The notes under the pieces are model-generated. The model worked only from the letters and a program-made list of their open reading frames with translations. It did no database searches and was not told the DNA's origin. Of a stretch of DNA of 64,000 nt, positions 37,051 to 64,000 are shown in pieces. This stretch comes from Candidatus Saganbacteria bacterium (GTDB lineage: Bacteria; Margulisbacteria; WOR-1; O2-12-FULL-45-9; XYB2-FULL-48-7): contig JAFGHC010000039.1 of the NCBI GenBank assembly GCA_016939335.1, positions 2,376-66,375 on the forward strand. The letters are read 5' to 3'. Positions within the stretch are counted from its first letter, which is position 1. Each line of letters opens with the position of its first letter. The position numbers were made by a program, and so were the translations under genes.

Positions 37051-38856
37051 TTATTTGTTGCGCGCGCGCTCATTCTCCGTCAGCAGCTTCTTCCGCAGGC
37101 GTATGTTATGCGGCGTCACTTCCACCAGCTCGTCGTCGTCGATGAATTCGAGCGCCTGCTCGAGCGTCAGCCTGATCGGCGGCGTCAGCTTGATCGCCTC
37201 GTCGGCGCCGGCCGCGCGGATGTTCGTCTGCTTCTTCTCCTTGGTCGGGTTGACCGTCATGTCGGAACGGCGGGCGTTCTCTCCCACGATCATCCCCTCA
37301 TAAACTTCGACCCCGGGCCCGACGAACAGCCGCGAGCGCTCCTGCAGGTTGTCGAGCGCGTAAGAAGCGGTCTTGCCGAAGTTGCCGGAGACCAGCACCC
37401 CGTTCTGCCGCTTGGCGATCTCCCCCTTCATCCGCTCGTAACGGGCGAAGGCGTGGTGGAGCAGCCCTTCGCCCTTCGTGTCCATGATGAACTGGGCGCG
37501 GAAGCCGAGGAGGCCCCGCGTCGGCACCAGGTAGACCAGCGTCGTCGTCCCGCTGCGCGACGACATCTCCTGCATCTCGCCGCGGCGCTTGCCCAGGCTT
37601 TCGATCACCACGCCGGCGTGCTCGTCGGGGACGCTGATGATCGCCTGTTCGATCGGCTCCATCTGCTCGCCGTGCACCGTCTTGAAGATCACCTGCGGCT
37701 GGGAGACCTGCACCTCGTACCCCTCGCGCCGCATCGTCTCCAGCAGGATCGAGAGATGGAGCTCGCCGCGCCCCGAGACCCTGAAGCCCTCGGCCCCGCC
37801 CAGGTCCTCCACCTTTAGCCCGACGTTCGTCTGCAGCTCGCGCTCCAGCCGCTCCCGCAGGTGGCGGTTGGTCACGTACTTCCCTTCGCGCCCGGCGAAG
37901 GGCGAGTCGTTGACCAGGAAGTCCATGTTCAGCGTCGGCTCGTCGATCTGGAGTAGCGGCATCGGCCGGGGATTGTCGGCCGCGCAGATCGTTTCGCCGA
38001 TCGTGATCCCTTCGATCCCGGCGACCGCGGCGATGTCGCCGCACTCGACAGTTTCGACTTCGACCTGCTTCAGCCCCTCGAAGATGGAGAGCCTGCTGAT
38101 CTTGCCGGGCTGGACCGAGCCATCGCGCTTGCAGACGGCGATGGTCATGTTCTTCTCCAGCCGGCCGCCCGTCACCCGCCCGATCGCGATCCGGCCGACG
38201 TAGTCGTCATAAGCCAGGTTGGTCACCTGCATTTGCAGCAGAGCGGCGCTCCGGTCGGGGTAAGGGGAAACGCGCCCGAAGATCGCGTCGAAGAGCGGCC
38301 CCAGGTCTTTCCGCTCGTCGGTCATCTCCTTCATTGCCACCCCTTCACGCGAAACGCAGTAAACCACCGGAAAATCCAGTTGTTCATCAGTCGCGTCCAG
38401 TTTAACGAAAAGGTCGAAGATCAGGTCGATCACCTTGTGGGCGCGCCGTCCTTCTTTGTCGACCTTGTCGATCTTGTTGATGACAACGATCGGCCGCAGG
38501 CCGAGCTTGAGCGATTTGGCCAGCACGAACTTGGTCTGGGGCATCGGCCCTTCCTTGGCGTCGACCAGGAGGAGGACGCTGTCGACCATCTTCAGCACCC
38601 GCTCGACCTCCGAACCGAAGTCGGCGTGGCCCGGCGTATCGACGATGTTGAGCTTGACCCCCTGATAGCGGATCGAGCAGTTCTTGGAGAGGATCGTGAT
38701 GCCGCGCTCCCGCTCGAGGTCGTTCGAGTCCATCACCAGCTCCGGGACCTCGTCCCGCTCGCCGAAGGCGCCCCCCTGGCGGAGCAGGTGGTCGGTCAGC
38801 GTCGTTTTGCCGTGGTCGACGTGCGCGATGATCGCGAGATTTATTATCTTCGTCAC
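37051..38856 (-). CDS. typA: translational GTPase TypA/BipA
   Basis: GTG start at 38856 gives [20 protein letters not shown] (G1), DTPGHADF (G3) and NKIDK (G4). The track ORF (to 39063) has a spurious 69-codon N-terminal extension. Confidence 0.9.
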
Positions 38857-38890
38857 AAATTCATTATAGCATGGGAAATCACCGCAAATT

Positions 38891-38944
38891 CCACACACTT
38901 TAGTGTGTGGTTTCAATCTTATTCGCTTTGGCCAGATTCTGGGG
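38891..38944. repeat. palindromic hairpin pair CCACACAC-TTTA-GTGTGTGG plus CCAGATTCTGGGG; inverted copy of the element at 62648-62693
   Basis: Perfect 8-bp stem with 4-nt loop. The 26-nt context (AATTCCACACACTTTAGTGTGTGGTTTC) matches the reverse complement of 62644-62670. Lies in the typA/greA divergent region. Confidence 0.6.
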
Positions 38945-39026
38945 GAAACTCCACAGCACTTGACATTTGTAACTGTTAACTTGCCGGCCCGTTCAAATTG
39001 CATCGTGATGAAACGCCCGGGAATGG

Positions 39027-39055
39027 TTAAGCTTCCCCATCTTATTTGATATAAT
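39027..39055 (+). promoter_or_regulatory. putative extended -10 promoter for greA (leaderless or near-leaderless transcript)
   Basis: TTGATATAAT (TGn-TATAAT) at 39046-39055. The greA ATG at 39062 is only 7 nt downstream, and there is no SD. Confidence 0.3.
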
Positions 39056-39061
39056 AACTCC

Positions 39062-39526
39062 ATGGCCGAACGGATGACCCAGGAGAACTACGACAAGATC
39101 GGGCAGAAGCTCGCCGCGCTCAAGAAGCGCCGCGCCGCCATCTCCAAGACGATCGGCGAGGCGCGCGAGCACGGCGACCTGCGCGAGAATTCCGCTTACC
39201 ACACCGCCAAGGACGAGCAGGGGCTCAACGAGATGCGGATCCGCGAGCTGGAGGCCAAGCTGGCCGGCGCCACGATCGTCGACAAGAGCGAACTGGCCGC
39301 CGCCGGCTGCGTCACGCTCGGTTCGACGGTGCGGATCAAGGCGCTCGACACCGGCCAGGAGTTCGAGTACGCCATCGTGGCCGAGGACGAGGCCGACGTC
39401 CTGGAGGACAAGATCTCGACCGCTTCGCCGATCGGCGGCGCGGTCGTCAACGAGCCGGTCGGCGCCGTCGTCGAGGCCGAACTGCCGCGCGGCAAGGTCA
39501 AGTTCAAGGTCCTCGAAATAAAATGA
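39062..39526 (+). CDS. greA: transcription elongation factor GreA
   Basis: MAERMTQENYDKIGQKLAALKKRRAAISKTIGEAREHGDLRENSAYHTAKDEQ: the GreA N-terminal coiled coil with conserved D and E; 154 aa. Confidence 0.85.
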   Translation: MAERMTQENYDKIGQKLAALKKRRAAISKTIGEAREHGDLRENSAYHTAKDEQGLNEMRIRELEAKLAGATIVDKSELAAAGCVTLGSTVRIKALDTGQEFEYAIVAEDEADVLEDKISTASPIGGAVVNEPVGAVVEAELPRGKVKFKVLEIK

Positions 39527-41322: not shown

Positions 41323-41455
41323 ATCAAATCACAAATAACAAACAATACCAAATTACCGGAATTCGAATGACTAAAACAGGCAACGTTTATTTCATTGGGT
41401 AATTGTGGTTTGGGATTTGTTTGTTATTTGATGCTTGTGATTTGTTATTTTGTTA
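41323..41455. repeat. family-2 AT-rich MITE-like element, copy B
   Basis: CACAAATAACAAACAATACCAAATTACCGGAATTCGAATG...GTTTGTTATTTGATGCTTGTGATTTGTTATTT; aligns with copy A at 25062-25197. Confidence 0.7.
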
Positions 41456-41465
41456 TACTGGCCCC

Positions 41466-42779
41466 ATGGTTGGCATGGATAAACAGGCCGCTCTTGACGC
41501 TTGCCTGACTCGCCTCGGGATCAAACTTTCCGATGTGGTGGAGAAGTTTATCCATTCGGGCGGCCCCGGCGGCCAGAACGTCAATAAGGTCGCCAGCGGC
41601 GTCTATCTCAAGCATCTGCCGACCGGCCTCGAGGTCAAGATGAGCCGCGCCCGCTCGCAGGCGCTCAACCGCTTCCTCGCCTGGCGGCTGCTGGCCGACA
41701 AGCTCGCGGCCCGGCTCCTCGGCAAGAAGAGCGCCGAACGGGCGAAGGCCGAAAAACTCCGCCGCCAGAAGCGCCGCCGCTCCCGCCGCGCCAAAGAAAA
41801 AGTTTTGCGGGAGAAAAAGCTGACCGCCGAAAAGAAACGCCTCCGCCGGCGGCCGCTCTTCTTGCTCTGTCTGGCCGTCCTGCTGACCGCGGCTGCCGCC
41901 TGGGCGGCCGTCCCGTCACTGGCCGGCCTGATGCAGCGCGATTATCACGGACGCGATCTGCAGCTGAAAAAAGTCCTGGCCGAGAACAACGTTTACACCC
42001 GCTATCTCATCACTTACAAAAGCGATGACCTGACGATCTCCGGCATCATGAATTTGCCGAAGGGGAAGGGGCCGTTCCCCGTCCTGATACTTAACCACGG
42101 CTTCATCGATCCGAAAATCTATACGAACGGCCGCGGCTTGAAGCGCGAACAGGATTATCTGGCGCGCCGTGGTTATATAGTGATTCATCCCGATTACCGC
42201 AATCACGCGTTTTCCGATCAGGACCCGGACGACCTGGCCGGCTTCCGGCTCGGCTACGTCATCGACGCGATCAACTGCGTCATGGCGGTCAAGGGGAGCG
42301 ACAAGCCGTATTTCAATAAGGAGAAGATCGGGCTGCTGGGCCATTCGATGGGGGGCGGGGTCGTCCTGAACTTTCTGGCCGTGAAACCCGGGCTGGCCAA
42401 AGCGGCGGTCCTTTTGGCGCCGGTCAGCGCCGATTACCGCGACAATTTCACCCGCTGGCTCTGGCGGCGCAAGCGCCATCCGGAAGTGGCTGAAAGAATC
42501 ATCGCCGAATACGGCTCGCCCGAATCAAACCCCGCCTTCTGGGCCGGCCTCTCGGCCGTCAGTTACTTAAATAATGTTAAGGCGCCGGTCATGCTCAACC
42601 ACGGCACCGCCGACGAGTCCGTCCCCTTTGACTGGTCGGTCCGGCTGGAAAAAGAGCTGAAGGCCCGCGGCAAAAGCGTCGTCTTCTACCGGTATCCCGG
42701 CGAGCGCCACGAGTTCGGCCCGCAGTGGCCGCTCATGATGGCGCGGATCGTCAAGTTCTTTGACGGATATTTAAAATGA
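41466..42779 (+). CDS. in-frame fusion: ArfB-like GGQ-domain peptidyl-tRNA hydrolase, basic tail, TM helix, alpha/beta-hydrolase (S9/dienelactone-hydrolase-like)
   Basis: N-terminus SGGPGGQNVNKVASGVYLKH (class-I release-factor GGQ domain), then the basic tail KKSAERAKAEKLRRQKRRRSRRAKEKVLREKKLTAEKKRLRRR. Then hydrophobic PLFLLCLAVLLTAAAAWAAV, then a hydrolase with nucleophile elbow GHSMGG and a C-terminal HGTADESVP ... ERHEF triad region. No stop codon between the parts. Confidence 0.55.
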   Translation: MVGMDKQAALDACLTRLGIKLSDVVEKFIHSGGPGGQNVNKVASGVYLKHLPTGLEVKMSRARSQALNRFLAWRLLADKLAARLLGKKSAERAKAEKLRRQKRRRSRRAKEKVLREKKLTAEKKRLRRRPLFLLCLAVLLTAAAAWAAVPSLAGLMQRDYHGRDLQLKKVLAENNVYTRYLITYKSDDLTISGIMNLPKGKGPFPVLILNHGFIDPKIYTNGRGLKREQDYLARRGYIVIHPDYRNHAFSDQDPDDLAGFRLGYVIDAINCVMAVKGSDKPYFNKEKIGLLGHSMGGGVVLNFLAVKPGLAKAAVLLAPVSADYRDNFTRWLWRRKRHPEVAERIIAEYGSPESNPAFWAGLSAVSYLNNVKAPVMLNHGTADESVPFDWSVRLEKELKARGKSVVFYRYPGERHEFGPQWPLMMARIVKFFDGYLK

Positions 42780-44325: not shown

Positions 44326-44355
44326 TTGACAAAAAGGGGGTTTAGGTAGTAATAT
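44326..44355 (+). promoter_or_regulatory. putative sigma70 promoter of the collagen-like protein gene
   Basis: TTGACA (44326-44331), 18-nt spacer, TAATAT (44350-44355). The gene has a strong SD GAGGAGGAG 6 nt before the ATG at 44454. Confidence 0.4.
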
Positions 44356-44453
44356 TATTAATGTACAAAGGGAAAGAATCGCACTGGTTAAAACCTCGCA
44401 ATTCTCTTCACTTCGGACGATTAATAATTTCCAAATTAATGAGGAGGAGTCAA

Positions 44454-45824
44454 ATGAAAAAGGTATTTCTGTTCTTATTTTTGGTGATCATGGTCGGGGC
44501 GGCTTTTGGCATTGCCGTGCCCAAACTGTCGGCGGTCCCGGAGAAATTATCTTATGAAGGGAGACTGCTCGACTCCGCCGGCAATCCGGTGATTGCCGCC
44601 AAGACCTTTGACGTCAGGATCTACGATGCCCCGACCGGCGGCAACGCCGTCTGGGGGCCCGAGAGCCAGACGGTCACGCCGAACGAACAGGGGGTTTTCA
44701 GCCTGATCTTGGGTGATAGCGTGCCGGTCACCGCCGCGGTCTTCAGCGGAACACCCCGATACGTCGAAGTCACCGTTGCCGGTGAAACGATCTCCCCCCG
44801 CACCCAGCTTGTCTCCGTCGGCACCGCTTTAAAAGCGGCGGTCGCGGAGAGCGTGGATAATGGTTCGATAACGAATAACAGTCTTGCCAACGCCACGATC
44901 CAGAACACTAAAGTTGCCCCCGGCCAATTTGTCAAACAGATCGTGGCCGGCGCCGGCATCGGCGTTTCCGATGATGAAGGCGGCGGCACCGGGATTGTGA
45001 CCCTGACGGCGACCGGCACCAGCGGCGGCACCGTCACGCGGGTCAATGCCGGGACCGGTTTGCTTGGCGGGCCGATCACGTCAAGCGGCACGATTTCGGT
45101 GGATGTCGGCACCGGCGCCCGCAAGATCGTTCAGCTTGACAATTTTGGAAGATTACCGGCGGTCAATGGTTCAAATTTAACGGCGCTGGATGCCGACAAC
45201 ATTTCCAGCGGCACGCTCGACGAAAGACGGGGCGGGACCGATCAATCAAGTTTTGCTCGCGGCGACATTCTTTACGCTTCAGGAACGAATAGATTGTCGA
45301 GATTGTCAATTGGCTCGAGCGGGCAAGTCCTGAAGGTCAGTGGCGGAGTACCCACCTGGAGTACTGGAGCAGCTGGCCCTGCCGGACCGCAAGGGCCGAC
45401 CGGCGAGGCCGGACCGAAGGGTGACAAAGGTGAGAAAGGTGATCCTGGGCCAGCCGGAGCCGATGGTGTTGCCGGACCAGCCGGGCCGATGGGGCCGACC
45501 GGCGAGGCCGGACCTGCGGGGACGGGGGGGAATGCTGACACAGTTGGTGGCAAATATTTCCTGGCCAAAACCGCCACTTGGATGTCAACGGCCTCGAGTA
45601 CTAAAACAATTACTGATTCCGATGTCACAACCGGGAGTATTATTATTGTTAATCTGGTCGATCAACCAGCCCCAGCATGGGGTTCTTCTTATAAATATAT
45701 TAGCAAAGTTGTTCCGGGCGACCAAGCTTTTACCTTAACTTTTGATGGAAATTTAAGGAACAATCAATCGCACACCGTAAATTATATTGTTATTAATAGT
45801 AGCGCGGCTCCTATACCGCAATAA
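44454..45824 (+). CDS. secreted collagen-like triple-helix repeat protein with a tail-fibre/BclA-like N-terminal region
   Basis: Signal peptide [19 protein letters not shown]. Uninterrupted G-X-Y run [50 protein letters not shown]-terminal globular domain about 110 aa. The track ORF starts 31 codons earlier at 44361. Confidence 0.75.
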
Positions 45825-45859: not shown

Positions 45860-46693
45860 ATGGGCCGAAATTTGGTTTTACTGTTACTGCTCGCTCTGCT
45901 GATCGGCAGTCCGGCCGCCGCATACCAGATCACCGGCGGCGCGGCCAACAGCGGCTCGCTTGCGGGCGGTTCGGCCGGCTACAACATCCAGGGCGCCGGC
46001 TACGGCTCGGCCGGCACGTTCGGCACCAGCAGCGGCTATTCGCTCTTTTCCGGCTCGGCTAACTGGCTGCTCTTGTTCACCACCGCCGCCAGCGCCACGT
46101 TCGATACGCCGGCGATCCTCTCCATCACTCCCGACGCCGGCCCGCCCGGCGCCAAGTTCACCGTCATCGGCAGCAAGTTCGGCGCCGCCCAGGGGGGCAG
46201 TTCACTCGTTTTTGAAAATGATCTCACCCACATCACTTACACGGCTGCCATCCTCTCCTGGAGCGACACGCTGATCGAGGCGATCAGGCCGAACCTGGCG
46301 ACGTCCGGCAGCTACACCGTCAAAGTCATCAGGAGCACGTTCTTGAGCGGCGCCACCTACTTTGTTGATTCAAATGCCGTCGCCCAGCGGATCAACGCCG
46401 CCGCGGCGGGAGAGGCGACCGTCTATCCCAATCCGTTCAACCCGCTGGCGGCGCCGATTAATCTGCTGATCGCCAATACCAGCGGGGCGACTAACGTCGG
46501 CTTTTACATATATGATATGACCGCGGAACTGGTCAGCCGGCAGATCGTCAGCGCCGCCCCTTATTCGGTCACCTGGGACGGCAAGGACCGGTCCGGCGCC
46601 CAGCTGGCCGACGGCGTCTACCTGCTGCGGGTCGTCAACGAAGATACCCATGCCCTGATCGCCAAAGGGAAGATCTTGCTGGTGAAGAAGTAA
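45860..46693 (+). CDS. secreted Gly/Ser-rich protein with an IPT/TIG-like domain and a T9SS-type (Por_Secre_tail-like) C-terminal sorting domain
   Basis: Signal peptide. SITPDAGPPGAKFTVIGSKFG (IPT-like). C-terminal about 85 aa ATVYPNPFNP...VGFYIYDMTAELVSRQIV...VTWDGKDRSGAQLADGVYLLRVVNEDTHALIAKGKILLVKK fits the VYPNP...YD..G......WDG.D..G..L..GVY..R..LL(K) CTD pattern. Confidence 0.65.
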   Translation: MGRNLVLLLLLALLIGSPAAAYQITGGAANSGSLAGGSAGYNIQGAGYGSAGTFGTSSGYSLFSGSANWLLLFTTAASATFDTPAILSITPDAGPPGAKFTVIGSKFGAAQGGSSLVFENDLTHITYTAAILSWSDTLIEAIRPNLATSGSYTVKVIRSTFLSGATYFVDSNAVAQRINAAAAGEATVYPNPFNPLAAPINLLIANTSGATNVGFYIYDMTAELVSRQIVSAAPYSVTWDGKDRSGAQLADGVYLLRVVNEDTHALIAKGKILLVKK

Positions 46694-46694
46694 A

Positions 46695-48515
46695 ATGAAA
46701 CAATTCATGATTTTAGCTTTGTGCCTCTGCCTGGCCTCCGCCGCCGGGGCGGTGGGCAGCCTTAGCGATCCGCTGGCGATCGGCGTCGGCGCGCGCGCCC
46801 TCGGCATGGGGAAAGCTTACGTCGGCCTGGCGGAGAACAGCGACGCCCTCTTCATGAACCCGGCCGGGTTGGCCCGGATCAACGGCCTGCAGTTCTCCAG
46901 CATGTCCGGCTCGCTGCTCGGCGAGGTCAATTACCAGCTCGGCGGCGTGGTCTATCCGCTCGGCGGCCTTGGCACGGTCGGCTTCGGCTACGTCGGCACT
47001 TCGGTCGGCGGCATCCAGTTCACCGACGCGACCGCCGCGCCGACGGGGACCGGCGACTGGGGCAATAGCGTCATGTTCCTCTCCTACGGTTCACAGTTGC
47101 TCAATACGCCGCTCCTCTTCGGCGGCAGCCTCAAGTACTTTAAGGTCGGGGGGAGCGGCACGGCCGACGCGGTCTCCGCCGCCGGCTCCGGCTACGACCT
47201 CGACCTCGGCCTGCTTTATCCGGTGAACGGCTTCACTACGCTCGGCGCCAACTGGCAGGACTGCCTCCCCGCTTCGCTCGGCGGCAAGATCAGCAAGACG
47301 GCGGGCGACGAAAATATCCCCGCCACGTTGAAGCTGGGCGGCAAGATGACCTTGCTCGGCCGGGAAGGAGAGGCGCTGCTGGCCAGCAATTCGCGCCGCC
47401 TCTACGGCTGTCTGGATTACGATCTCTGTCAGAATTCCGGTAAGACCGGCGCGCTCCACGCCGGGCTCGAATTCTGGCCGAGCCGCAATTTCGCGTTGCG
47501 GGCCGGCAGCGACAGGAGCGACCTGACCGCCGGGGTCGGCCTCCGCTTCTCCGGCTTTGAGTTCGATTACGCCTACCATCTCTACGGCGAGATCAGCGAG
47601 AACGCCACCCATTACTTCTCGCTCGCTTACCTCGGGGAGGGGCCGACCGAGCTCAACGTGAAACTGAATACGCCGCGCGACCATATGGTGGTTTACGACG
47701 ACCATGTTTCGCTCTCGGGCCAGGTCAAGGCGCTGACCGATGACGGCTGGGAAAAAGACGGGCCGTTCAAGGTCAAGGTCAACGGCCAGCCGCTCCAGCT
47801 CCTTCCCGGCAACAGTTTTGAGAGCGAAGTGCCGGTCGAGAGTTACGGCAAGAAGAAGCTGGTTGTCGAGGTCGTCGACGACGGCGGCAACCGCCGCGTG
47901 GCCGAGCTCGAGATCGTCCGGCTGACCGCCTTCGCCGACGTGCCCGACGGCTACTGGGCGAAACAGTCGATCGAACGGAACGGCACGCTCGGGCTGGTCC
48001 CCGGCTACGCCGACGGCACGTTCAAGCCGGAAAACCCGCTGACCCGGGCCGACATGGTCGCGCTCCTCCTGCGCGCCAAAGGTTTGACCCCGCCGGCCGA
48101 AGGGACCGCCAAGGCCGTGTTCAAAGATGTTAAGCCCGATTTCTGGGCGGCCAAATACCTTGAGCTGGCCTGGAAAGAAGGGCTGGTCAGGGGCTATCCC
48201 GACGGCACTTTCCGGCCGAACAATCACACTTCGCGGGTCGAGAGCGTCGTGCTGATGACCCGGTTTGACGGGGTCCGGCCGGTCGCGATGGTCGAGGGAA
48301 GACCGTACAATGATGTTGCGGCCGACCACTGGGCGGCCGGCTCCGTTGCCGCCGCGCGCGACGCGGGGATGATCGGCTTCACTTCAGCCAACCGCTTGGA
48401 ACCGCAGGCCGCGGTCACCCGCTCGCAGCTCGCCGACATGTTCTCCCGCACGGCGGTGGCGGGCGGCCGGATCAAAGACCTCCTGACCTGGGAAAAAGGC
48501 CGGACCGGCTACTAA
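46695..48515 (+). CDS. outer-membrane PorV/FadL-like beta-barrel fused to three C-terminal SLH domains
   Basis: Signal peptide. GVGARALGMGKAYVGLAENSDALFMNPAGLA (same signature as the sppA N-domain). Barrel about 300 aa ending ...HYFSLAYL. Ig-like linker, then three SLH repeats (FADVPDGYWAKQSIER..., FKDVKPDFWAAKYLELAWKEGLVRGYPDGTFRPN..., YNDVAADHWAAGSVAAARDAGMI...). Confidence 0.7.
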   Translation: MKQFMILALCLCLASAAGAVGSLSDPLAIGVGARALGMGKAYVGLAENSDALFMNPAGLARINGLQFSSMSGSLLGEVNYQLGGVVYPLGGLGTVGFGYVGTSVGGIQFTDATAAPTGTGDWGNSVMFLSYGSQLLNTPLLFGGSLKYFKVGGSGTADAVSAAGSGYDLDLGLLYPVNGFTTLGANWQDCLPASLGGKISKTAGDENIPATLKLGGKMTLLGREGEALLASNSRRLYGCLDYDLCQNSGKTGALHAGLEFWPSRNFALRAGSDRSDLTAGVGLRFSGFEFDYAYHLYGEISENATHYFSLAYLGEGPTELNVKLNTPRDHMVVYDDHVSLSGQVKALTDDGWEKDGPFKVKVNGQPLQLLPGNSFESEVPVESYGKKKLVVEVVDDGGNRRVAELEIVRLTAFADVPDGYWAKQSIERNGTLGLVPGYADGTFKPENPLTRADMVALLLRAKGLTPPAEGTAKAVFKDVKPDFWAAKYLELAWKEGLVRGYPDGTFRPNNHTSRVESVVLMTRFDGVRPVAMVEGRPYNDVAADHWAAGSVAAARDAGMIGFTSANRLEPQAAVTRSQLADMFSRTAVAGGRIKDLLTWEKGRTGY

Positions 48516-48604: not shown

Positions 48605-49636
48605 ATGAAAAAGAAAGCCCTGGTCTCCGCCGTCTTTGGCCCGGTAATGATCGTTGCCTGCGTTCTGCTCGTCGTTCACGGTTGCGGCCAGACGGGAGGG
48701 GGCGGCAGTGCCGGCATCCAGTCGATCAGTTTTTACAGCGTGGGGGCCAGCACCACCCCCGTTTTTGATCCGCTCGCTTCGGCCTCTGCTGCCATCTCCG
48801 GCGGCTGGGGTTCGGGCAATACCATGTATGCGCTTTATTACACGCTCCGGGAATATGTCAACAGCCGCGACGGCGGCACGATCGACCGGGCGAACCTTTA
48901 CCGTCTGCTCTACGACGTTGAAACGCTTTTCAGCGCCATGACCCACCAGGTCGTTGCCTTGCCGTCGGCGGAGGTGATCGCGCCGCCGTTCGATTTCGGC
49001 AATAATCTTGCCTATTCGGCCGCGCTCAATAACGAGACCGAAAAAATGGCCGCCGCCATGACCCAGGAAGGGAACGTTACTAAAGGGATCGTTTCCTGGA
49101 TCTGGACCGAAAGCTCCGACGGCCACAAAGAGTACGGCGTCCTCGAGGCGGTGATGGACCAGAGCACCAAGGATATCACCGTCGATTTCGTCTTCAGCGT
49201 CGATTACACACCGGGCGACACGACTTGCGATTACAACAACCGGACCCATATTTCCGGCAACTCCGATACGCACGCTTTCCAGTTCGTCCAGACGCTCGGC
49301 AACACCGGCGAGGCCGTCACCCAGCTGGTCGGCAAGGGCGTTTCCCGGGGGGCGGGGAACTATTTCCTCTTCAAGGTGCAGAGCAGCAACGGCGACGGCT
49401 TCGGTTCGCCGCTCTACGTGGTGCTGAGCGCCGAAGCGGACGAGGCGACGCTCAAGAACTTCGACGTTTCCGCCGAAGCGTATAGCAGCGCGGCCAGCCT
49501 GCCGGCCAGCGTGGCGTCTTATGTGAATTATGTCGAGAACACGCCGTTCTTCGCCTGGTCGGACCTTTTGGTCGATCTCAACGACCTTAATCGCGGCATC
49601 ACCGGCAAACAGGGCACGATCTATCTTAATTACTGA
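48605..49636 (+). CDS. hypothetical lipoprotein/secreted protein
   Basis: Signal peptide with lipobox-like LVVHGCG, then a Gly-rich linker GQTGGGGSAG; 343 aa; no known domain. Confidence 0.5.
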   Translation: MKKKALVSAVFGPVMIVACVLLVVHGCGQTGGGGSAGIQSISFYSVGASTTPVFDPLASASAAISGGWGSGNTMYALYYTLREYVNSRDGGTIDRANLYRLLYDVETLFSAMTHQVVALPSAEVIAPPFDFGNNLAYSAALNNETEKMAAAMTQEGNVTKGIVSWIWTESSDGHKEYGVLEAVMDQSTKDITVDFVFSVDYTPGDTTCDYNNRTHISGNSDTHAFQFVQTLGNTGEAVTQLVGKGVSRGAGNYFLFKVQSSNGDGFGSPLYVVLSAEADEATLKNFDVSAEAYSSAASLPASVASYVNYVENTPFFAWSDLLVDLNDLNRGITGKQGTIYLNY

Positions 49637-49637
49637 C

Positions 49638-50351
49638 CTGAGGCTTAAATTCACTGCCGGCATTTTGCTCCTGATGCTGGCCGCGCCCGCGCCGGCGGAA
49701 ACGGTCATCGACCGCAAGCTCTCCCTCGGCGGCAAGCTGGCCGCCGGCAACACCGACCTCCAGTCGGTCAGCTTCGTCTTCCGGCTCAACCGGAACCGGC
49801 GGCTGACCGACGAGACGACGCTCAAGGGGCGGTTCGACCGCGAGTACGCCGACGGGCTGGAAACGGCTTACAAGCTTTACGGCTCCGGCCGCTACGCCCG
49901 CTCCTGGAACGAGCGGCTGTACAATTATTATAAGCTGGAAGCGGAGCACGACCGGTTCCAGGACATCGCCCTCCGGCTGATCCCAACGGTCGGCCTCGGC
50001 TACTGGTTCGCGACCGGCGCGGAGGAGAGCGCCATGATCGAGGCGGCGGCCGGCTACCAGTGGGAAAGCCTGATCAGCCGTGAGGAGCGGGACGTTCTCC
50101 TCCTGACCGTCAGCGCCGATTACGGCCGCGGGCCGTTCTCCAACGACTTCGACCTCTACCTGGCGGCCGGCGACCTTGCCAATTACCGTTTCACCAACCT
50201 GGCCGGGCTGGCCGCCAGGCTGAACGGCCGCTTCGCCCTCAAGCTGACGCTCAAGGAAGAGTACAACAACCGGCCCGCCGCCGGCGTCGAACGCAACGAC
50301 CTGGTCCTGACCGTGGCGCTGGAGTATTCGTCCAGGGGCCAAGAAGAGTGA
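49638..50351 (+). CDS. DUF481 (YdiY-like) outer-membrane beta-barrel protein; start uncertain
   Basis: Signal-like LKFTAGILLLMLAAPAPAETV, then DUF481-type repeats, C-terminal aromatic-rich strand LTVALEYSS. The track ORF begins at 49530 inside the previous gene; the true start is probably a non-ATG codon near 49638-49665. Confidence 0.5.
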   Translation: MRLKFTAGILLLMLAAPAPAETVIDRKLSLGGKLAAGNTDLQSVSFVFRLNRNRRLTDETTLKGRFDREYADGLETAYKLYGSGRYARSWNERLYNYYKLEAEHDRFQDIALRLIPTVGLGYWFATGAEESAMIEAAAGYQWESLISREERDVLLLTVSADYGRGPFSNDFDLYLAAGDLANYRFTNLAGLAARLNGRFALKLTLKEEYNNRPAAGVERNDLVLTVALEYSSRGQEE

Positions 50352-53679: not shown

Positions 53680-54217
53680 ACGACTGCTCCGGGAGGAACG
53701 AATATTCCGCGGTCTTTTTATAGCCGGCCCGCTCCGCTTCGCTGACGATCTTTTCCTGCGGCACATTATGCCCGAAGAACCGCCGGAAGTGGAAAAGACT
53801 GCCGCCCGGTTTATATTCGACGATAGCCAGCCGGCCGTTCGTTTTTAGCTTGGTTTTCAGGCCCGCCAGCAGCGCGACGCGGTCCGTCAAGTGGTGATAG
53901 ACGTTGCGCATGAAGATCAGGTCGAAATGGCTGCCGGGCAAAGTTGAGGCGGCCCCGGCCGGCGCGGTCTTAACGTTATTCAGTCCCCTGGCCTGGCCGA
54001 GCCGCTCGATCAGCCGGAGATGCTCGCGGTCCTTGTCGAGGGCGACGACCTCGCCGGCCGGCCCGACCAGTTCGGCGAAGCGGAGCGCGAAGTAGCCGCC
54101 GCCGGCGCCGTAGTCAAGGGCGTTCTGCCCCGGCCTTAGGCCCAGCGCCCCGATGATCTCGTCCGGCCGGCTTTTCGCGGTGGCGGCTTTCTTGTTGAAC
54201 ATTTCGGCGCGGCACAT
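53657..54217 (-). CDS. class I SAM-dependent methyltransferase
   Basis: ALDYGAGGGYFALRFA motif I and VVALDKD motif II; 186 aa. Confidence 0.75.
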   Translation of the reverse strand: MCRAEMFNKKAATAKSRPDEIIGALGLRPGQNALDYGAGGGYFALRFAELVGPAGEVVALDKDREHLRLIERLGQARGLNNVKTAPAGAASTLPGSHFDLIFMRNVYHHLTDRVALLAGLKTKLKTNGRLAIVEYKPGGSLFHFRRFFGHNVPQEKIVSEAERAGYKKTAEYSFLPEQSFTVYSAA

Positions 54218-54340
54218 GGGAGTATTTTATCATGAGCATAAGCGCTTGACAAACGGAGCGGCCAGGCTGTATAATGTGCGTATGCACGTAACGGATCATC
54301 AGATTATCAGAGTATCAGAATATCAGGGGGAGGGGAGAAC

Positions 54341-54679
54341 ATGACGCCGCGGCAAAGGAAATGGCGTGTTTGCCAGCCGTTCGGCGGGGATGCGTTTTAC
54401 AAGCCGCGCGCCGTCCCTTTGTCCGCTCTGGAGATAATAAAGCTCGGCCATGACGAGGTCGAAGCGATGCGCCTGTGCGATTATGAAGAGCTGGAACAGG
54501 AAGCGGCGGCCCAAAAAATGAATATTTCCCGGGGGACGGTGCAGCGGCTGCTTTATTCCGGCAGGAAAAAGGTCGTCGAGGCGATCACGCGGGCCAGGGC
54601 CTTGCAGATCGAAGGCGGGGAGCACATTGTGCCGCCGGGTTTTGGCGGCCGGGGACGCGGTTGGTGTGGAAGGAGGTGA
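54341..54679 (+). CDS. DUF134 / UPF0251 family predicted DNA-binding protein
   Basis: LSALEIIKLGHDEVEAMRLCDYEELEQEAAAQKMNISRGTVQRLLYSGRKKV: a sigma-70 region-4-like HTH typical of DUF134. Confidence 0.65.
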   Translation: MTPRQRKWRVCQPFGGDAFYKPRAVPLSALEIIKLGHDEVEAMRLCDYEELEQEAAAQKMNISRGTVQRLLYSGRKKVVEAITRARALQIEGGEHIVPPGFGGRGRGWCGRR

Positions 54680-54940
54680 ATGATCATGCCGGGAGGAGAT
54701 GGAACAGGACCGTGGGGCCAGGGGCCGGGGACCGGTTGGGGCCGGGGCGGCTGCGTGCCCTGGGGCCGCGGCGCCCGCGTTGGCCGGGGTCGCGGCGGTT
54801 GGTGGGGCAGGGCGTTCGGAGCGTTTAGGGATGTTTTTGCCCCGTACAATCCCGCTGACGAAGAGGCGGAACTCAAAGCGGAGCGCGACGCGGTCAACGC
54901 GCGGTTAGCGGAGATCGAAAAGGGGAAAAAAGTAAAATGA
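54680..54940 (+). CDS. DUF5320-type glycine-rich small protein
   Basis: MPGGDGTGPWGQGPGTGWGRGGC...GRGRGGWWG followed by a short helical tail EEAELKAERDAVNARLAEIEK. Immediately follows DUF134. Confidence 0.6.
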   Translation: MIMPGGDGTGPWGQGPGTGWGRGGCVPWGRGARVGRGRGGWWGRAFGAFRDVFAPYNPADEEAELKAERDAVNARLAEIEKGKKVK

Positions 54941-55332
54941 AAATAGCCATATCTACCGACAACGGGCAGGTATCGGCGCATTTTGGGCGGTGCCCCGAGT
55001 TCACGGTCGTCACGATCGAGAACGGCACGGTCGTCGATCAGGAGACCGTGCCCAATCCGGGGCACCAGCCCGGGTTCCTGCCGAAGTTCCTGCGCCAGCG
55101 AGGAGTGCAAATGATCGTGGCGGGGGGGATGGGGGCGCGCGCCCAAATGCTCTTTGCCGAAGAGCAGATCGAGACCGTGGTCGGCGTTACCGGCAGTGTC
55201 ATGGAAGCGGTCAAAGGGCTGCAGGCCGGAACTTTGCGGAGCGGAACATCGCTCTGCAGTCCGGGAGCCGGGCGAGGCTACGGTTTAAATAAAACGGAGT
55301 GCGATCATCCGCACCATGAGGAGGAAAAATGA
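54937..55332 (+). CDS. NifX/NifB-type dinitrogenase FeMo-cofactor-binding domain protein
   Basis: MKIAISTDNGQVSAHFGRCPEFTVVTIENGTV ... MIVAGGMGARAQ: the Nitro_FeMo-Co (PF02579) pattern. Confidence 0.7.
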   Translation: MKIAISTDNGQVSAHFGRCPEFTVVTIENGTVVDQETVPNPGHQPGFLPKFLRQRGVQMIVAGGMGARAQMLFAEEQIETVVGVTGSVMEAVKGLQAGTLRSGTSLCSPGAGRGYGLNKTECDHPHHEEEK

Positions 55333-55703
55333 AGATCTGTGTGACCGCCGCGGCCGGCTCACTTGACGCGGCTATCGACCCGCGCTTCGGACGCTGCGCT
55401 TTTTTTATCATCATCGACCCGGCCACGCTCGAATTTAAGGCGTTGCCCAATCCTAATCTGGAATCTTCCGGAGGGGCCGGGATCCAGTCGGCCCAGCTGG
55501 TGGCTAACGAAGGGGTTGAGGCGGTGGTCACGGGGAATGTCGGGCCGAACGCCCATCAGACCTTATCCGCCCTGGGGATCAAGGTCCTGATCGGAGCGTC
55601 GGGGACCGTCAGCCAGGCGGTCGCCGACTACCGGGCCGGCAGACTTCAGGAAGCGGCCGGTCCGTCGGTTAGCGGCCACTTTGGACAGGGAGGGGGGAAA
55701 TGA
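55329..55703 (+). CDS. second NifX/NifB-type FeMo-cofactor-binding domain protein
   Basis: MKICVTAAAGSLDAAIDPRFGRCAFFIIIDPATLEF ... AVVTGNVGPNAHQTLSALGIKV. Confidence 0.7.
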   Translation: MKICVTAAAGSLDAAIDPRFGRCAFFIIIDPATLEFKALPNPNLESSGGAGIQSAQLVANEGVEAVVTGNVGPNAHQTLSALGIKVLIGASGTVSQAVADYRAGRLQEAAGPSVSGHFGQGGGK

Positions 55704-56035
55704 GCGATTTACCGTCGGTCACAGGAGAGAATTTCCAGTCAGAAGTATTGCAAGGCCAGAAACCGGTCCTGGTCGATTTCTGGGCGCCCTGGTGCGTTCC
55801 CTGCAAGATGATCGGCCCGGTGCTGGAAAAGGCCGCCGCCAAGCTCGGCGACCGGCTCAGGGTGGTCAAACTGAACGTGGAAGAGGAGAAGGCGACGGCC
55901 GACAGCCACGGGGTGATGAGCATCCCTTCGCTGGTCATGTTTGCCGGGGGAAAGGAGGTCGGCCGGATCGCCGGGTTCATGGACGAGGCGCGCTTGAGCG
56001 CCGAGATCGCCGACCTCTTGGAAATGGCGGGATGA
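55700..56035 (+). CDS. thioredoxin (WCVPC variant)
   Basis: PVLVDFWAPWCVPCKMIGP active site; 111 aa. Confidence 0.8.
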   Translation: MSDLPSVTGENFQSEVLQGQKPVLVDFWAPWCVPCKMIGPVLEKAAAKLGDRLRVVKLNVEEEKATADSHGVMSIPSLVMFAGGKEVGRIAGFMDEARLSAEIADLLEMAG

Positions 56036-56355
56036 CGGCCCCGTCCTTTGCCGAGGTCGACCAGGCCCGCAAGGTTCTGGGCCTGGGAGATAAAGCGGAC
56101 CTGGCAGAAGTCAAGCGGGCGCAGCGGCGGCTGGTAAAGGAGTGGCACCCCGACAAACGCCGTAAGGCTGAGCAGGCGGAATGCCATGAAAAGATGAAAG
56201 AGATCAACCGGGCCTATAAGATCATTATGAAGTACATTGAGAACTACCGTTATGACTTCGTCGAAAGTAAAGTGAGCGAGGACGATCCCATCGCCCGCTG
56301 GAAAGCGCAATTCGGCGACGACCCGACCTGGGGAACGGGCAAAGGGTGGTCTTAG
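56031..56355 (+). CDS. J-domain (DnaJ-like) protein
   Basis: ATG overlapping the thioredoxin stop; LGLGDKADLAEVKRAQRRLVKEWHPDK carries the HPD motif. The track lists only a longer out-of-context ORF (55681-56355). Confidence 0.6.
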
Positions 56356-56356
56356 G

Positions 56357-57043
56357 ATGGCGCTGGAGTTCCGGGGAGCGATCGCCGGCGGTTATGAAGC
56401 CTGGTTCTCGACAGTAAGAGGTCGGTACGCCGACCGGCTGGAGAAAAAGGTCATTTCTGGTCTGGTCAAAATAAGGCCGGGCGAAAAGATTTTAGATGTC
56501 GGTTGCGGCACCGGCCATTTTTCCGCTTTTTTCCGGAAGATGGGCGGTCAAGTCACCGGGCTTGAGCCGTCGCCGGAGATGCTGGCCGAAGCAAGGCGTC
56601 TGTACGGTGAAAGAGGGATAAATTTCATTGCGGGGAACGCCGAACGGTTGCCCTTTGCCGACCGCTCTTTTGACCTGGTCACGCTGATCACGGTCCTGGA
56701 ACTGCTCGACGATCCAGGTCAAGCCTTAGCGGAGGCTTTTCGGGTCGGCAAGGGGAAGGTCTTTCTCGGTATTCTGAACCGGGACAGCATTATTAACCGG
56801 CAGAGGGCAAAAACGGGTAAAGGGATCTGGCGGCAGGTCCATTTTTATACTTTACGGGAGATCAGGGCACTGCTGGGGAAGGGGGCCAAGGTCGTCTGGC
56901 GCGGGGCCCTTCATTTGCCGCTGCCGGCGTCGGAGCGAAGCGCCGTCTGGCGCTATCCGCTCGAAAGCTTATTGTCGAACCTGAAAATGCTCGGCGGCGC
57001 TTTTATTGGGATGATGGCGGAAAGAAAAGATGGGAGGGAATGA
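56357..57043 (+). CDS. class I SAM-dependent methyltransferase (Methyltransf_11 type)
   Basis: ILDVGCGTGHFS motif I; 228 aa. Confidence 0.75.
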   Translation: MALEFRGAIAGGYEAWFSTVRGRYADRLEKKVISGLVKIRPGEKILDVGCGTGHFSAFFRKMGGQVTGLEPSPEMLAEARRLYGERGINFIAGNAERLPFADRSFDLVTLITVLELLDDPGQALAEAFRVGKGKVFLGILNRDSIINRQRAKTGKGIWRQVHFYTLREIRALLGKGAKVVWRGALHLPLPASERSAVWRYPLESLLSNLKMLGGAFIGMMAERKDGRE

Positions 57044-57044
57044 A

Positions 57045-57218
57045 ATGGCTTATATTATTGATCAGGAAAAGTGTATCGGTTGCGGGGCCTGCGCTCCTCA
57101 ATGCGCGGCGGAGGCGATCGCCCCGGATGAGGATAAATACAGGATAGACAGGGAAAAATGCACGGAATGCGGCGCCTGCGTCGATTCCTGCCCGGTCGGA
57201 GCGATCAGCAAGCCATGA
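57045..57218 (+). CDS. 2x[4Fe-4S] ferredoxin
   Basis: CIGCGACAPQC and CTECGACVDSC motifs. ATG at 57045 preceded by GGGAGGGAA. Confidence 0.8.
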   Translation: MAYIIDQEKCIGCGACAPQCAAEAIAPDEDKYRIDREKCTECGACVDSCPVGAISKP

Positions 57219-57556
57219 ACGCCAAGCGCAAGATCGGGATCATCAGGTGTCAGCAAACTGAGGATATGTGCCCGGGGAATACCGGTTTGAAAGCGGCGGC
57301 CGAGGGCAAACTGGCTTTTGCCGAAATTGGCCCGTGCGAGATCGTCGGTTTTGTTACCTGCGGCGGCTGCCCGGGCAAAAGGGCGGTTACCAGGGCGAAA
57401 ATGCTGGTCGAGCGGGGAACGGACACGATCGTCATCGCGTCGTGCATCAGCAAGGGGCATCCGGTCGGAGTTCCCTGCCCGCATTTTGCGCAAATGAAGG
57501 AAAGTATTGCCAAAAAAGTCGGTCCGGAGATAAAAATAATCGATTGGACGCATTGA
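57215..57556 (+). CDS. CGGC-domain protein
   Basis: MNAKRKIGIIRCQQTEDMCPG ... VGFVTCGGCPGKR ... IASCISKG conserved-cysteine pattern of PF08821. ATGA overlap with the ferredoxin stop. Confidence 0.65.
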   Translation: MNAKRKIGIIRCQQTEDMCPGNTGLKAAAEGKLAFAEIGPCEIVGFVTCGGCPGKRAVTRAKMLVERGTDTIVIASCISKGHPVGVPCPHFAQMKESIAKKVGPEIKIIDWTH

Positions 57557-57996
57557 AATTGATAATTAAGTCAAGGCCGATAGGCATAATTCATTCCCCT
57601 TTCAAGACCAAGGAAGAAGCGCCGATCCAGCCGTTCAAGTCGGACGCTGAAGGGCGGGTGGAAGTCTATGAAAAATATGCCGCGGGGCTGGAAGGGATCG
57701 AGCAGTTCTCCCACGTGATCCTGGCCTATTATTTCCACCAGATCAAGGACGAACGGCTCAAGGTAAAACCGTATCTTGACGACAACGAATACGGGGTGTA
57801 TGCCACGCGGCATCCCCACCGGCCGAACCACATCGGTATTTCAACGGTCAGGCTGCTCGGGAGGAAAGGGAAGATCCTGCGGGTCAAGAATATTGACATT
57901 GTTGACGGCAGTCCGTTGCTGGATATCAAGCCGTACGTTTCGGCCTTTGACCGCCGGGATAACGTCAAAGACGGCTGGCTGGAGGGGAAGATATGA
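57556..57996 (+). CDS. tsaA: tRNA (adenine37-N6)-methyltransferase TsaA/TrmO (YaeB family)
   Basis: TTG start; PIGIIHSPFKTKEEAPIQP ... HPHRPNHIGISTVRLL ... LDIKPY. Confidence 0.7.
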   Translation, partial: KLIIKSRPIGIIHSPFKTKEEAPIQPFKSDAEGRVEVYEKYAAGLEGIEQFSHVILAYYFHQIKDERLKVKPYLDDNEYGVYATRHPHRPNHIGISTVRLLGRKGKILRVKNIDIVDGSPLLDIKPYVSAFDRRDNVKDGWLEGKI

Positions 57997-58718
57997 ACAA
58001 AGGCCCGGGGGGGCTGGAGATCAAAGGTTTTATCGAAACCTCTTTCCTCGATTGGGACGGAAAGATCGTTTCGACTTTATACGTGGCCGGGTGTAATTTC
58101 CGCTGTCCCTTTTGTCATAACGCCGGACTCATTGAGAGGCCGCACGAGTATGAAACGATCCCTCTGGAGCGCATAGAGAATTACCTGCTGGCCCATAAGG
58201 ATTTTATAGACGGGATCTGCCTGACCGGCGGCGAACCCTGTTTGCATAAGGGCCGGGGGCTTTTTGAGTTCATGAAGCGGGTTAAGGACAAGGGGTTTGA
58301 AATAAAATTAGACAGCAATGGGACGGACCCGGAATGCTTGAAGACGGCGCTCGACCAAAAACTGGCCGATTATTTCGCCATGGATATCAAGGGGCCGCTG
58401 GACGAAAGGTACGACGGCCTTTCCGGGGTAAAGACGGACCTGGCCGGGATCAAAGAGAGCGTTAAAACCATCAGAGAAAGCGGCGTCCCACATGAGTTCC
58501 GCACGACGGTGCTGCCGACCCTGCTGGGAGAGGAAGAGATCGCGGCGATCGCCGGTTACCTGGCCGGCGCGGAGAAGTTCGTGCTTCAGCAGTTCGCGCC
58601 GGACCATGCCTGGGACGAGAAGCTGCGTTCGGTCAAGCCGTATGAAAAGCCGGAGCTTGAGCGTCTGGCCCGGGTTGCCAGAACGCACGTGCCCAATGTC
58701 CTGATCCGGGGGGTATGA
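57993..58718 (+). CDS. NrdG-like radical SAM activating enzyme
   Basis: SFLDWDGKIVSTLYVAGCNFRCPFCHN matches the NrdG/PFL-AE N-terminal cluster motif; 241 aa. No glycyl-radical enzyme gene is present in the window. Confidence 0.65.
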   Translation: MNKGPGGLEIKGFIETSFLDWDGKIVSTLYVAGCNFRCPFCHNAGLIERPHEYETIPLERIENYLLAHKDFIDGICLTGGEPCLHKGRGLFEFMKRVKDKGFEIKLDSNGTDPECLKTALDQKLADYFAMDIKGPLDERYDGLSGVKTDLAGIKESVKTIRESGVPHEFRTTVLPTLLGEEEIAAIAGYLAGAEKFVLQQFAPDHAWDEKLRSVKPYEKPELERLARVARTHVPNVLIRGV

Positions 58719-58753
58719 TGACGGCAGCCAATTAAAGCAAGGGAGGAAAAAGG

Positions 58754-62249: not shown

Positions 62250-62250
62250 T

Positions 62251-62568
62251 ATGGATAAGATCAAACATAAAATAATGGTCATGAGCAATAAAGGGGGCGT
62301 CGGTAAAAGCACCGTGTCCGTCAACCTGGCCTTTGGCTTGAGCGAGCAGGGCAAAAAAGTCGGGCTCCTCGACGCCGATCTGCACGGGCCGAGCCTGGCG
62401 AAAATGAGCGGCTCACAGGGCAATCTGCTCTCCGCCCGGGAGGGGAGGATCGCGCCCTTGGAAATGGGCGGGAACATGAAAATTGTCAGTTTAGCTTTAT
62501 TGTTCGGCCGGCAAGACGAGCCCATTATCTGGCGCGGCCCGCTAAAAATGAAAGCGATCAAACAATGA
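62251..62568 (+). pseudogene. Mrp/ApbC/NBP35-family ATPase, truncated after 105 codons
   Basis: MVMSNKGGVGKSTVSVNLAFGL P-loop and IIWRGPLKMKAIKQ match the Mrp family. Reading frame terminates at TGA 62566. The following about 190 bp is a hairpin-rich element, not coding. Confidence 0.55.
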
Positions 62569-62570
62569 AA

Positions 62571-63936: not shown

Positions 63937-64000
63937 AAGCTAAAAGAGCGGTCGAACATTTTATCGGGAGAGGGGGGCGGGGGCGGCTTAATTGCGCGCA

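Follow-up and report, generated by a model that had tools for sequence, protein, structure and literature searches.

A conserved gene pair of the Margulisiibacteriota couples a type-A-like sorting tail to a PorV/PorQ-family barrel with S-layer homology repeats

We analysed a 64,000-nucleotide stretch of DNA (contig JAFGHC010000039.1, positions 2,376 to 66,375; hereafter the window) from Candidatus Saganbacteria, a sister phylum of cyanobacteria, and characterized two adjacent genes on its forward strand. The first encodes an exported protein with a C-terminal domain related to type IX secretion system (T9SS) sorting domains, which we refer to as the cargo and its tail. The second encodes an outer-membrane barrel that continues into an immunoglobulin (Ig)-like spacer and three S-layer homology (SLH) repeats, which we refer to as barrel-SLH (Table 1). 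Both open reading frames (ORFs) lie where an initial annotation, made from the letters alone, had placed them, and at their junction (...AAG AAG TAA A ATG...) a single base separates the TAA stop codon (46691-46693) from the following ATG. Pairs of this kind recur across the Margulisiibacteriota, and we propose that they probably serve to anchor variable proteins at the cell surface.

Table 1. Features of the cargo/barrel-SLH locus and its flanks (positions in the window)
Feature	Position	Strand	Remarks
Promoter-like site TTGACA-18-TAATAT	44326..44355	+	before the three-gene run; consensus match only, 10/12 positions
Collagen-repeat protein gene	44361..45824	+	487 aa; possibly in the same operon as the pair; ends 36 nt before the cargo gene
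Cargo gene	45860..46693	+	277 aa; signal peptide aa 1-22, Gly/Ser/Ala-rich disorder aa 23-80, TIG domain, C-terminal sorting-type domain
TIG/IPT Ig-like passenger domain	46109..46393	+	aa 84-178; model pLDDT >90
C-terminal 7-strand beta-sandwich	46418..46690	+	aa 187-277; related to type A T9SS sorting domains and FlgD-Ig
Barrel-SLH gene	46695..48515	+	606 aa; signal peptide aa 1-20; NCBI start at M5, giving 602 aa
PorV/PorQ-family outer-membrane domain	46755..47639	+	aa 21-315; N-terminal plug, NPAG motif N55-P56-A57-G58, 14 strands
Ig-like beta-sandwich spacer	47649..47921	+	aa 319-409; probably periplasmic
Three SLH repeats	47928..48485	+	aa 412-597; motifs TRAD, SRVE, TRSQ
343-aa protein gene	48605..49636	+	lipoprotein-like signal peptide; no family match; unit membership uncertain
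DUF481 protein gene	49530..50351	+	Pfam DUF481, 104 bits; unit membership uncertain

An NCBI entry that is 100% identical to the 606-aa protein is named 'PorV/PorQ family protein [Candidatus Saganbacteria bacterium]', and the NCBIfam model of the PorV/PorQ family (NF033709) passes its cut-off on residues 27-312 (100.9 bits compared to 90). Relatives scored 103 and 125 bits with this model, and a short form of the protein, described below, scored 73.7 bits, which is below 90. An AlphaFold2 model built on 73 homologues, with a mean predicted local distance difference test score (pLDDT) of 92.5, begins with a signal peptide and a plug (residues 25-61), followed by 14 long strands (66-312), a beta-sandwich (319-409) and three helical SLH repeats (approximately 415-597). 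In a Foldseek search against the PDB, the best matches were the PorV chains F of the Flavobacterium johnsoniae SprA-PorV complexes 8gl6 and 6h3i (E 1e-10 and 5e-10), one of which comes from a substrate-bound complex. The PorV chains reached TM-scores of 0.62-0.67 on the target, whereas FadL and TodX were lower (0.4-0.5). With 14 strands, not fewer than 8, and PorV as the top fold match, the barrel assignment of the initial annotation stands. The NPA(G) hatch motif is a typical feature of the FadL superfamily. All 73 homologues have N55 and P56, at least 90% of the barrel set retains A57 and G58, and structures of the FadL mutants N33A and P34A are among the PDB fold matches of the barrel. Barrels of the FadL/PorV type have an even strand number and both termini in the periplasm. 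Because of this topology and the even strand number found here, the Ig spacer and the SLH module should be periplasmic. As regards the spacer, homologues carry precomputed PF09136 (Glucodextran_B) matches.

The fusion of the barrel to an Ig-like linker and three SLH repeats, which had been read from the sequence initially, was borne out by the AlphaFold2 model and by Pfam SLH (PF00395), which reached 94.4 bits in three stretches of the protein. The SLH fold resembles the SLH trimers of Sap from Bacillus anthracis and SpaA from Paenibacillus alvei in the PDB (TM-score 0.76-0.84), both of which bind pyruvylated polymers. An end-to-end alignment with B. anthracis Sap places the motifs TRAD, SRVE and TRSQ opposite TRAE, DRVS and TKAE, and R451, E516 and R576 are invariant across the barrel-SLH family. 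The domain order is indeed the reverse of that in OmpM and SlpA, with the barrel N-terminal and three SLH repeats C-terminal, whereas the solved chains 8bys and 7zgx have a single N-terminal SLH domain. That one chain carries the full SLH trimer would fit a monomeric barrel; OmpM needs three chains. Enzymes of the LytR-CpsA-Psr (LCP) family ligate secondary wall polymers to peptidoglycan. Because of this activity, an LCP family gene at 8310-9194 on the reverse strand of the window bears on the presence of an SLH ligand.

The signal peptide of the cargo, MGRNLVLLLLLALLIGSPAAA, was read straight from the sequence, and the identical NCBI entry is named 'IPT/TIG domain-containing protein [Candidatus Saganbacteria]'. 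Pfam TIG passes on residues 84-164 (30.7 bits) and Pfam FlgD_ig on residues 199-261 (36.9 bits compared to a cut-off of 27); in NCBIfam, the C-terminal ends of PorZ and PorU follow as next-best. In the AlphaFold2 model of the cargo, residues 1-75 are disordered and are followed by the TIG domain and by a seven-strand sandwich (187-274) at a pLDDT of approximately 90. The top PDB fold match of this model is PorU from Porphyromonas gingivalis (6za2, E 1.5e-6), with Vpr in second place. The tail contains the motifs YPNPFNP, IYIYDMTAxLV, WDGKD..G..LADGVYLLRV and AKGKILLVKK, and the sorting-domain motif string quoted in the initial annotation is present in the 277-aa protein.

We also built a profile from 25 family tails and compared it with solved structures. 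The Ig domains of FlgD were matched at profile positions 22-75 only, while the PorU tail was matched at positions 3-74 and the PorZ tail at 1-76. Among the 25 tails, FlgD_ig matched 21, Por_Secre_tail 13 and CHU_C 11 (E <0.01 for the latter two); CHU_C, with a best E of 3e-6, was weaker on the family tails than the other two. In a search of a large protein database, nearly all listed matches outside the family carried both PF18962 and PF13860. Those with names were 'T9SS type A sorting domain' or 'FlgD Ig-like' proteins from Ignavibacteria, Cloacimonetes, Marinimicrobia, Bacteroidales, Calditrichaeota, Chlorobi and Zixibacteria. Across the family, the tail has the layout YPNPFNP, IYIYDmtaRlV, WDG..G...dGvYl.rv and aKGKILViK and lies at the extreme C-terminus, 0-6 residues from the end in 60 of 60 tail-carrying ORFs. 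Its central stretch, YDMTARL or FDMTGRIV, corresponds to the FDMNGRR loop of RgpB, which is needed for secretion of that protein (PMC11285876). Two relatives pass the sorting-domain model TIGR04183 (23.3 and 23.4 bits compared to 23), and the sequence comparisons place the window tail as a borderline case within the type A sorting-domain family. A FlgD hook-cap protein was rejected as an identity for the cargo: FlgD aligns with no more than the middle of the domain, which forms the C-terminus of adhesin-like proteins, and the surroundings showed no flagellar context.

To survey the family, we ran a profile of the barrel alone over one genome per GTDB species, obtained 280 relatives and examined the best 80 loci, which came from 44 genomes. 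ORFs were called in these loci and searched with hidden Markov models (HMMs) derived from the window barrel, SLH module and tail. A tail-bearing ORF lay immediately upstream on the same strand for 42 of the 50 long-form genes (barrel, Ig spacer and three SLH repeats) with enough upstream sequence. The spacing was mostly a few to a few tens of nucleotides, or the genes overlapped; the barrel-domain match began 0-210 nt after the cargo stop. The barrel and tail distance matrices of 52 pairs were correlated (Mantel r = 0.78), and none of 2000 permutations reached this value. These counts rule out chance adjacency, and together with the co-divergence they sustain the view that cargo and barrel form a conserved cognate pair. 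The passengers range from 109 to 2750 aa in length, differ even between close pairs, and have adhesin-like domains across the family (TIG, He_PIG, Big_9, cadherin-like, CBM_11 and choice-of-anchor Z repeats). Individual genomes contain several pairs, with up to six long-form genes as a lower bound, and a complete WOR-1 genome contains two pairs in tandem.

The barrel profile matched 894 clusters at 50% identity with E ≤ 1e-30, the barrel being always N-terminal, and among 141 newly retrieved best matches all 53 proteins of at least 600 aa contained SLH. The named members of the best 80 loci were all from Margulisiibacteriota, Saganbacteria or WOR-1 except one labelled Dehalococcoidia. In the whole family, this holds for every named member bar two records, P0026 'Candidatus Sulfotelmatobacter' and L017 'uncultured Dehalococcoidia', which are probably binning errors on short or mid-size contigs of metagenome-assembled genomes (MAGs) and not occurrences outside the phylum. 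Contamination of MAGs as a source of the family itself is ruled out by its presence in 44 genomes, including the curated complete WOR-1 genome.

Other forms of the barrel were also found. The short form (approximately 545-565 aa) has a tail-bearing neighbour in none of 13 cases and is divergently oriented beside typA/bipA. Because only approximately 190-220 aa follow its barrel, the size of three SLH repeats, the Ig spacer cannot be accommodated. This form is the probable housekeeping orthologue that gave rise, by multiplication, to the cargo-linked long forms. Short-form loci include L041, L046, L047, L052, L055, L060, L062, L067, L074 and L079, with the barrel gene near 10 kb in most; the typA gene of the window (37051-39063) has no short-form barrel-SLH neighbour.

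Of 16 barrel-only genes (approximately 330-370 aa, without SLH), 9 are preceded by a tail-bearing ORF, and for 7 of these 9 the partner consists of a signal peptide and a tail only, with 109 aa in five loci and with lengths called as 132 and 153 aa in the other two. The tail-only/barrel-only pair always lies between sepF-proC-yggT and rpsB-tsf-polA, a housekeeping synteny, and its barrel reaches 125 bits with the PorV family model, above the window protein. The pairs are located at L033:4700-6000, L037:9654-10969, L038:9630-10945, L045:9525-10924, L049:6058-7487, L057:532-1913 and L073:2985-4474.

A further variant occurs in the window itself, where a forward-strand gene (29223-31613) encodes a 796-aa protein in which a reduced PorV-like barrel of approximately 270 N-terminal residues is fused to a full SppA signal-peptide peptidase. 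It has a signal peptide as well as GVSTRALGMGG and NPAG motifs and matches the barrel HMM (E 2e-20) and TIGR00706 (286 bits). Such a protein would be a periplasmic serine protease anchored in the outer membrane; a connection with the processing of tails is pure speculation. The same fusion is found at L021:17511-19940 and L031:15915-18356, in both cases preceded by a 275-aa PorV-like ORF and located 5-8 kb downstream of a cargo/barrel-SLH pair.

We consider it probable that these pairs constitute a lineage-wide module of the Margulisiibacteriota in which a cognate barrel holds the tail of its partner at the surface and the SLH repeats fix the complex to the wall as a static anchor. The first gene would provide a Sec-exported protein with a freely variable Ig-like or adhesin-type passenger and a conserved type-A-like C-terminal sandwich. 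The second, translationally coupled to it, would provide the partner's own 14-strand barrel, followed by the periplasmic Ig spacer and the three-repeat SLH module. PorV binds type A tails through its extracellular loops (PMC10994853); the loops of the present barrel would likewise grip the tail of the partner, in this case permanently, and the passenger would be displayed on the cell surface. Beneath the outer membrane, the SLH pseudo-trimer would bind a wall polymer or peptidoglycan. Because of this binding, the complex would be immobile and would act as an extra tether between the outer membrane and the wall. The initial annotation had cast the barrel as a shuttle. As a barrel that would be fixed to the wall by SLH repeats and is encoded one-to-one with its cargo, it looks like a fixed anchor and not a mobile carrier of many cargoes.

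Several observations weigh against this proposal. Tail-barrel binding and surface location are both concluded indirectly, and a translocon that would bring folded Ig-domain cargo across the outer membrane was identified neither among the scanned window ORFs nor in the annotated sample of the related loci. The equivalog cut-offs are far missed (PorV NF033710, 24.9 compared to 250 bits; PorQ NF033711, 23.4 compared to 220), as is that of PorVQ2 (PorV2, NF052325; 46 compared to 325). Because of these scores, we regard the barrel as a member of the PorV/PorQ family and not as an orthologue of PorV or PorQ, and the identification as PorV is withdrawn. Eight of the 50 long-form genes have no detectable tail gene upstream, and the co-divergence of barrel and tail could come from co-inheritance alone. 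The 109-aa tail-only proteins paired with barrel-only genes suggest that the tail-barrel contact may have a role beyond the display of a passenger. A gene for the pyruvyl transferase CsaB (csaB) was not found among approximately 45 window ORFs scanned, a sample that is uninformative for the whole genome. The window tail scores just below the curated cut-offs of the C-terminal domain (CTD) models, with 19.3 compared to 27 bits for Por_Secre_tail (PF18962) and 21.9 compared to 23 bits for TIGR04183.

These last scores also bear on a point that the initial annotation had raised against itself, namely that FlgD-Ig might outscore the CTD models. Formally it does (36.9 compared to 19.3 and 21.9 bits), but the choice is a false dichotomy, because the nearest relatives of the tail, which are annotated as T9SS type A, carry both Pfam matches and because the profile spans the whole PorU and PorZ tails and matches FlgD only centrally.

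A tentative alternative, to which we give some weight while holding it below the static-anchor proposal, is that the tail-barrel pair works without any type IX translocon. Recognition between tail and barrel would then be an autonomous module, possibly older than the T9SS, that was elaborated into wall-tethered display units and general outer-membrane anchors. Such anchors would include barrel-SLH, the barrel-SppA protease, and the barrel alone with a tail-only mini-protein, and the route of the cargo to the surface would be new.

A genuine T9SS, with the SprA/Sov translocon, motor and sortase encoded elsewhere in the genome and the barrels acting as specialised PorV carriers that collect cargo from the translocon, much as SprF-like carriers collect type B cargo, seems unlikely to us. 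It would agree with the homology of the tail to type A sorting domains, including the members that pass TIGR04183, and with the barrel fold being closest to PorV. Cognate cargo/carrier gene pairs also occur inside true T9SSs (PMC12618676). CTD proteins and T9SS genes co-occur strictly in Bacteroidota, but T9SS genes are reported only from the Fibrobacterota-Chlorobiota-Bacteroidota (FCB) superphylum and as absent outside it (both PMC11285876), and for the pairs of the Margulisiibacteriota these two statements pull in opposite directions. No T9SS core gene was present among the approximately 45 ORFs scanned in the window, and none was seen beside the related loci, where a sample of the ORFs in approximately 1.17 Mb was annotated. 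Clustering of all ORFs of 80-82 loci, the same approximately 1.17 Mb with a sample annotated, likewise revealed no third partner, such as a sortase or translocon, that is conserved with the pairs. Moreover, a wall-tethered barrel cannot leave the translocon, which is the energised step of the current T9SS model (PMC10994853). The T9SS label that had been attached to the locus is thus not supported by the neighbourhoods or by the literature.

It is improbable that the two proteins are functionally unrelated, the barrel being an SLH-tethered uptake channel of the FadL type or a plain tether and the cargo a periplasmic or wall-located FlgD-type Ig protein that is merely co-regulated. FlgD_ig is the best-scoring Pfam model of the tail, the FadL hatch motif is conserved, and the barrel can occur without a partner, since no partner gene accompanies the short form beside typA/bipA (0 of 13). 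However, FlgD matches only the central third of the tail while the PorU and PorZ matches run from its PNP start, and the tail is always at the extreme C-terminus and ends in a K-rich motif typical of sorting tails. The co-divergence of barrel and tail and the adhesin-like passengers (TIG, He_PIG, cadherin-like, Big_9, CBM_11) also stand against it. Weaker still is the idea that the barrel itself exports its partner in two-partner style, perhaps via a lateral opening and with the tail as targeting and plug element: the strict one-to-one, translationally coupled order with the passenger gene before the barrel gene, the lack of another translocon found nearby and the pairing of tail-only mini-proteins with barrel-only genes would suit it, but a plugged 14-strand barrel with a conserved NPAG hatch has no precedent for polypeptide passage, the passengers, as multi-Ig proteins with lengths of up to 2750 aa, are large, and known PorV-family members bind cargo and do not translocate it (PMC10994853).

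The pair lies in a co-oriented run that begins with the 487-aa collagen-repeat protein, and no convincing terminator was found between the collagen-repeat, cargo and barrel-SLH genes. At its N-terminus, the 487-aa protein weakly resembles mosaic adhesive trimer fibres of Bdellovibrio; it has a G-x-y run of the collagen triple-helix type at approximately aa 335-393 and is without a C-terminal sorting domain. Its true start is likely the MKKVF signal peptide, approximately 31 codons inside the listed ORF. In many related loci, the slot of this gene is occupied by another large secreted protein. At least 15 loci have such a third gene 0-50 nt before the tail-bearing gene, its product without a sorting tail (including L003:3111-7637, L004:2175-6833, L006:2317-6222, L009:78-3245, L011:4515-7523, L012:3233-6565, L014:1924-6801, L015:2612-6085, L017:664-4143, L027:624-6518, L048:3475-7683 and others), and in other genomes a propeller protein takes the position of the collagen-repeat gene. 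Downstream, the 343-aa protein is not conserved beside homologous pairs, and DUF481, which we take to be an outer-membrane beta-barrel family, would suit a diderm envelope.

Elsewhere, the window contains the housekeeping genes rpoD, dnaG, ppdK, argJ, argB, gltX, typA/bipA and feoB. A 458-aa ORF on the forward strand (41403-42779) combines an RF-1 domain (peptidyl-tRNA hydrolase, ArfB-like; aa 39-133) with a prolyl-oligopeptidase/alpha-beta-hydrolase domain (aa 226-457), and is either an unusual fusion or two genes joined by the ORF caller. From approximately 54 kb onwards (54000-64000), the GC skew is strongly positive: four of the five final 2-kb bins read 0.15-0.17 and the bin 60001-62000 reads 0.017, compared to approximately 0 elsewhere. 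The region 54000-64000 carries co-oriented radical-SAM and redox genes.

The NCBI pipeline already labels these proteins as 'PorV/PorQ family' or 'SLH domain-containing'. In the literature searched, we found no description of a fusion between a PorV-like barrel and SLH repeats, in agreement with the initial annotation, and nothing that links the T9SS to Margulisiibacteriota or a FadL-type barrel to SLH; no relevant account of secretion in Termititenax appeared there either. The two-gene cargo/barrel-SLH unit appears undescribed there as well. The module would give diderm Terrabacteria a second, structurally different class of SLH-tethered outer-membrane protein, in a group where tethering of the OmpM type is central to current ideas on the retention or loss of the outer membrane. 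It also places a type-A-like tail and a PorV-like barrel, the signature parts of type IX cargo handling, in a lineage without a known T9SS; either the T9SS extends beyond its currently known range, or recognition between tail and barrel can operate independently. The finding would become considerably more interesting should the phylum turn out to be without a type IX translocon. More than 50 natural, one-to-one, co-diverging pairs provide a data set for the specificity between tail and carrier, a question still unresolved for PorV, and the module could serve as a compact scaffold for surface display.

The best fold match among known proteins is PorV (LptO) of the Bacteroidota T9SS, which, like barrel-SLH, is a 14-strand FadL-like barrel with an N-terminal plug in family NF033709 and binds Ig-like C-terminal domains of the kind encoded beside the barrel-SLH gene. 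Sequence identity between the two is approximately 16-17%. PorV is one mobile carrier for all type A cargoes and is unlinked to cargo genes, whereas there is one barrel-SLH per adjacent cargo, with an added Ig spacer and three SLH repeats, in a host that belongs to the Terrabacteria and not to the FCB group. In P. gingivalis, PorU sits on PorV and PorZ on PorQ; in both complexes, a surface protein with an uncleaved tail is held on a barrel of the PorV/PorQ family, as proposed here. Both proteins keep their tails (PMC11285876), and the attachment complex consists of PorU, PorV, PorQ and PorZ (PMC11285876; PMC12365241). The genes porU and porV are adjacent in P. gingivalis (PMC5445135), their order equals the cargo-barrel order, and among solved T9SS structures the tails of PorU and PorZ match the family tail best. 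However, PorU (the sortase) and PorZ (the carrier of anionic lipopolysaccharide, A-LPS) are parts of the machinery and depend on the Sov translocon, whereas the partners of barrel-SLH are variable, adhesin-like proteins and their barrel is wall-tethered.

In organisation, the module resembles the operons of type B cargo with PorP/SprF and PorE, such as Fjoh_3952-3951-3950 in F. johnsoniae and PG1035-PorP-PorE in P. gingivalis. A type B cargo gene is followed by its own SprF-like carrier gene, and five F. johnsoniae operons add a PorE-like peptidoglycan binder and are thought to form static wall-anchored complexes (PMC12618676). The cognate barrel encoded directly downstream, the several pairs per genome, the adhesin-like cargo and the proposed static wall-anchored complex are common to both. 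The likeness is one of organisation only, and the parts are not homologous: here the tail is type-A-like, the barrel is PorV/PorQ-like with no PorP/SprF model among the NCBIfam matches listed, and the wall binder is an SLH trimer fused to the barrel in place of a separate OmpA-type protein. The module would thus fuse into one polypeptide the barrel and wall-binding functions that the type B systems of Bacteroidota, with three proteins, keep apart.

With OmpM, Slp(A) and the cyanobacterial Som proteins, barrel-SLH shares an outer-membrane barrel joined to SLH that ties the membrane to the wall. Saganbacteria and Margulisbacteria are reported to have canonical OmpM (bioRxiv 10.1101/2021.05.31.446380), and barrel-SLH would add to the tethering provided by the OmpM homologues of the phylum. 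OmpM has one N-terminal SLH domain and a stalk before the porin barrel, and three chains make the SLH trimer; in the solved chains, SLH matches residues 21-73 of OmpM (8bys) and 34-81 of SlpA (7zgx). In contrast, barrel-SLH has a presumably monomeric barrel, to judge from FadL and PorV, which is followed by the full three-SLH module, and it has a dedicated protein partner. The three-repeat pseudo-trimer fold and the motif positions are those of B. anthracis Sap and P. alvei SpaA, in which an N-terminal SLH module holds a secreted S-layer protein on the outer face of a monoderm wall, whereas here it would be periplasmic, under the outer membrane.

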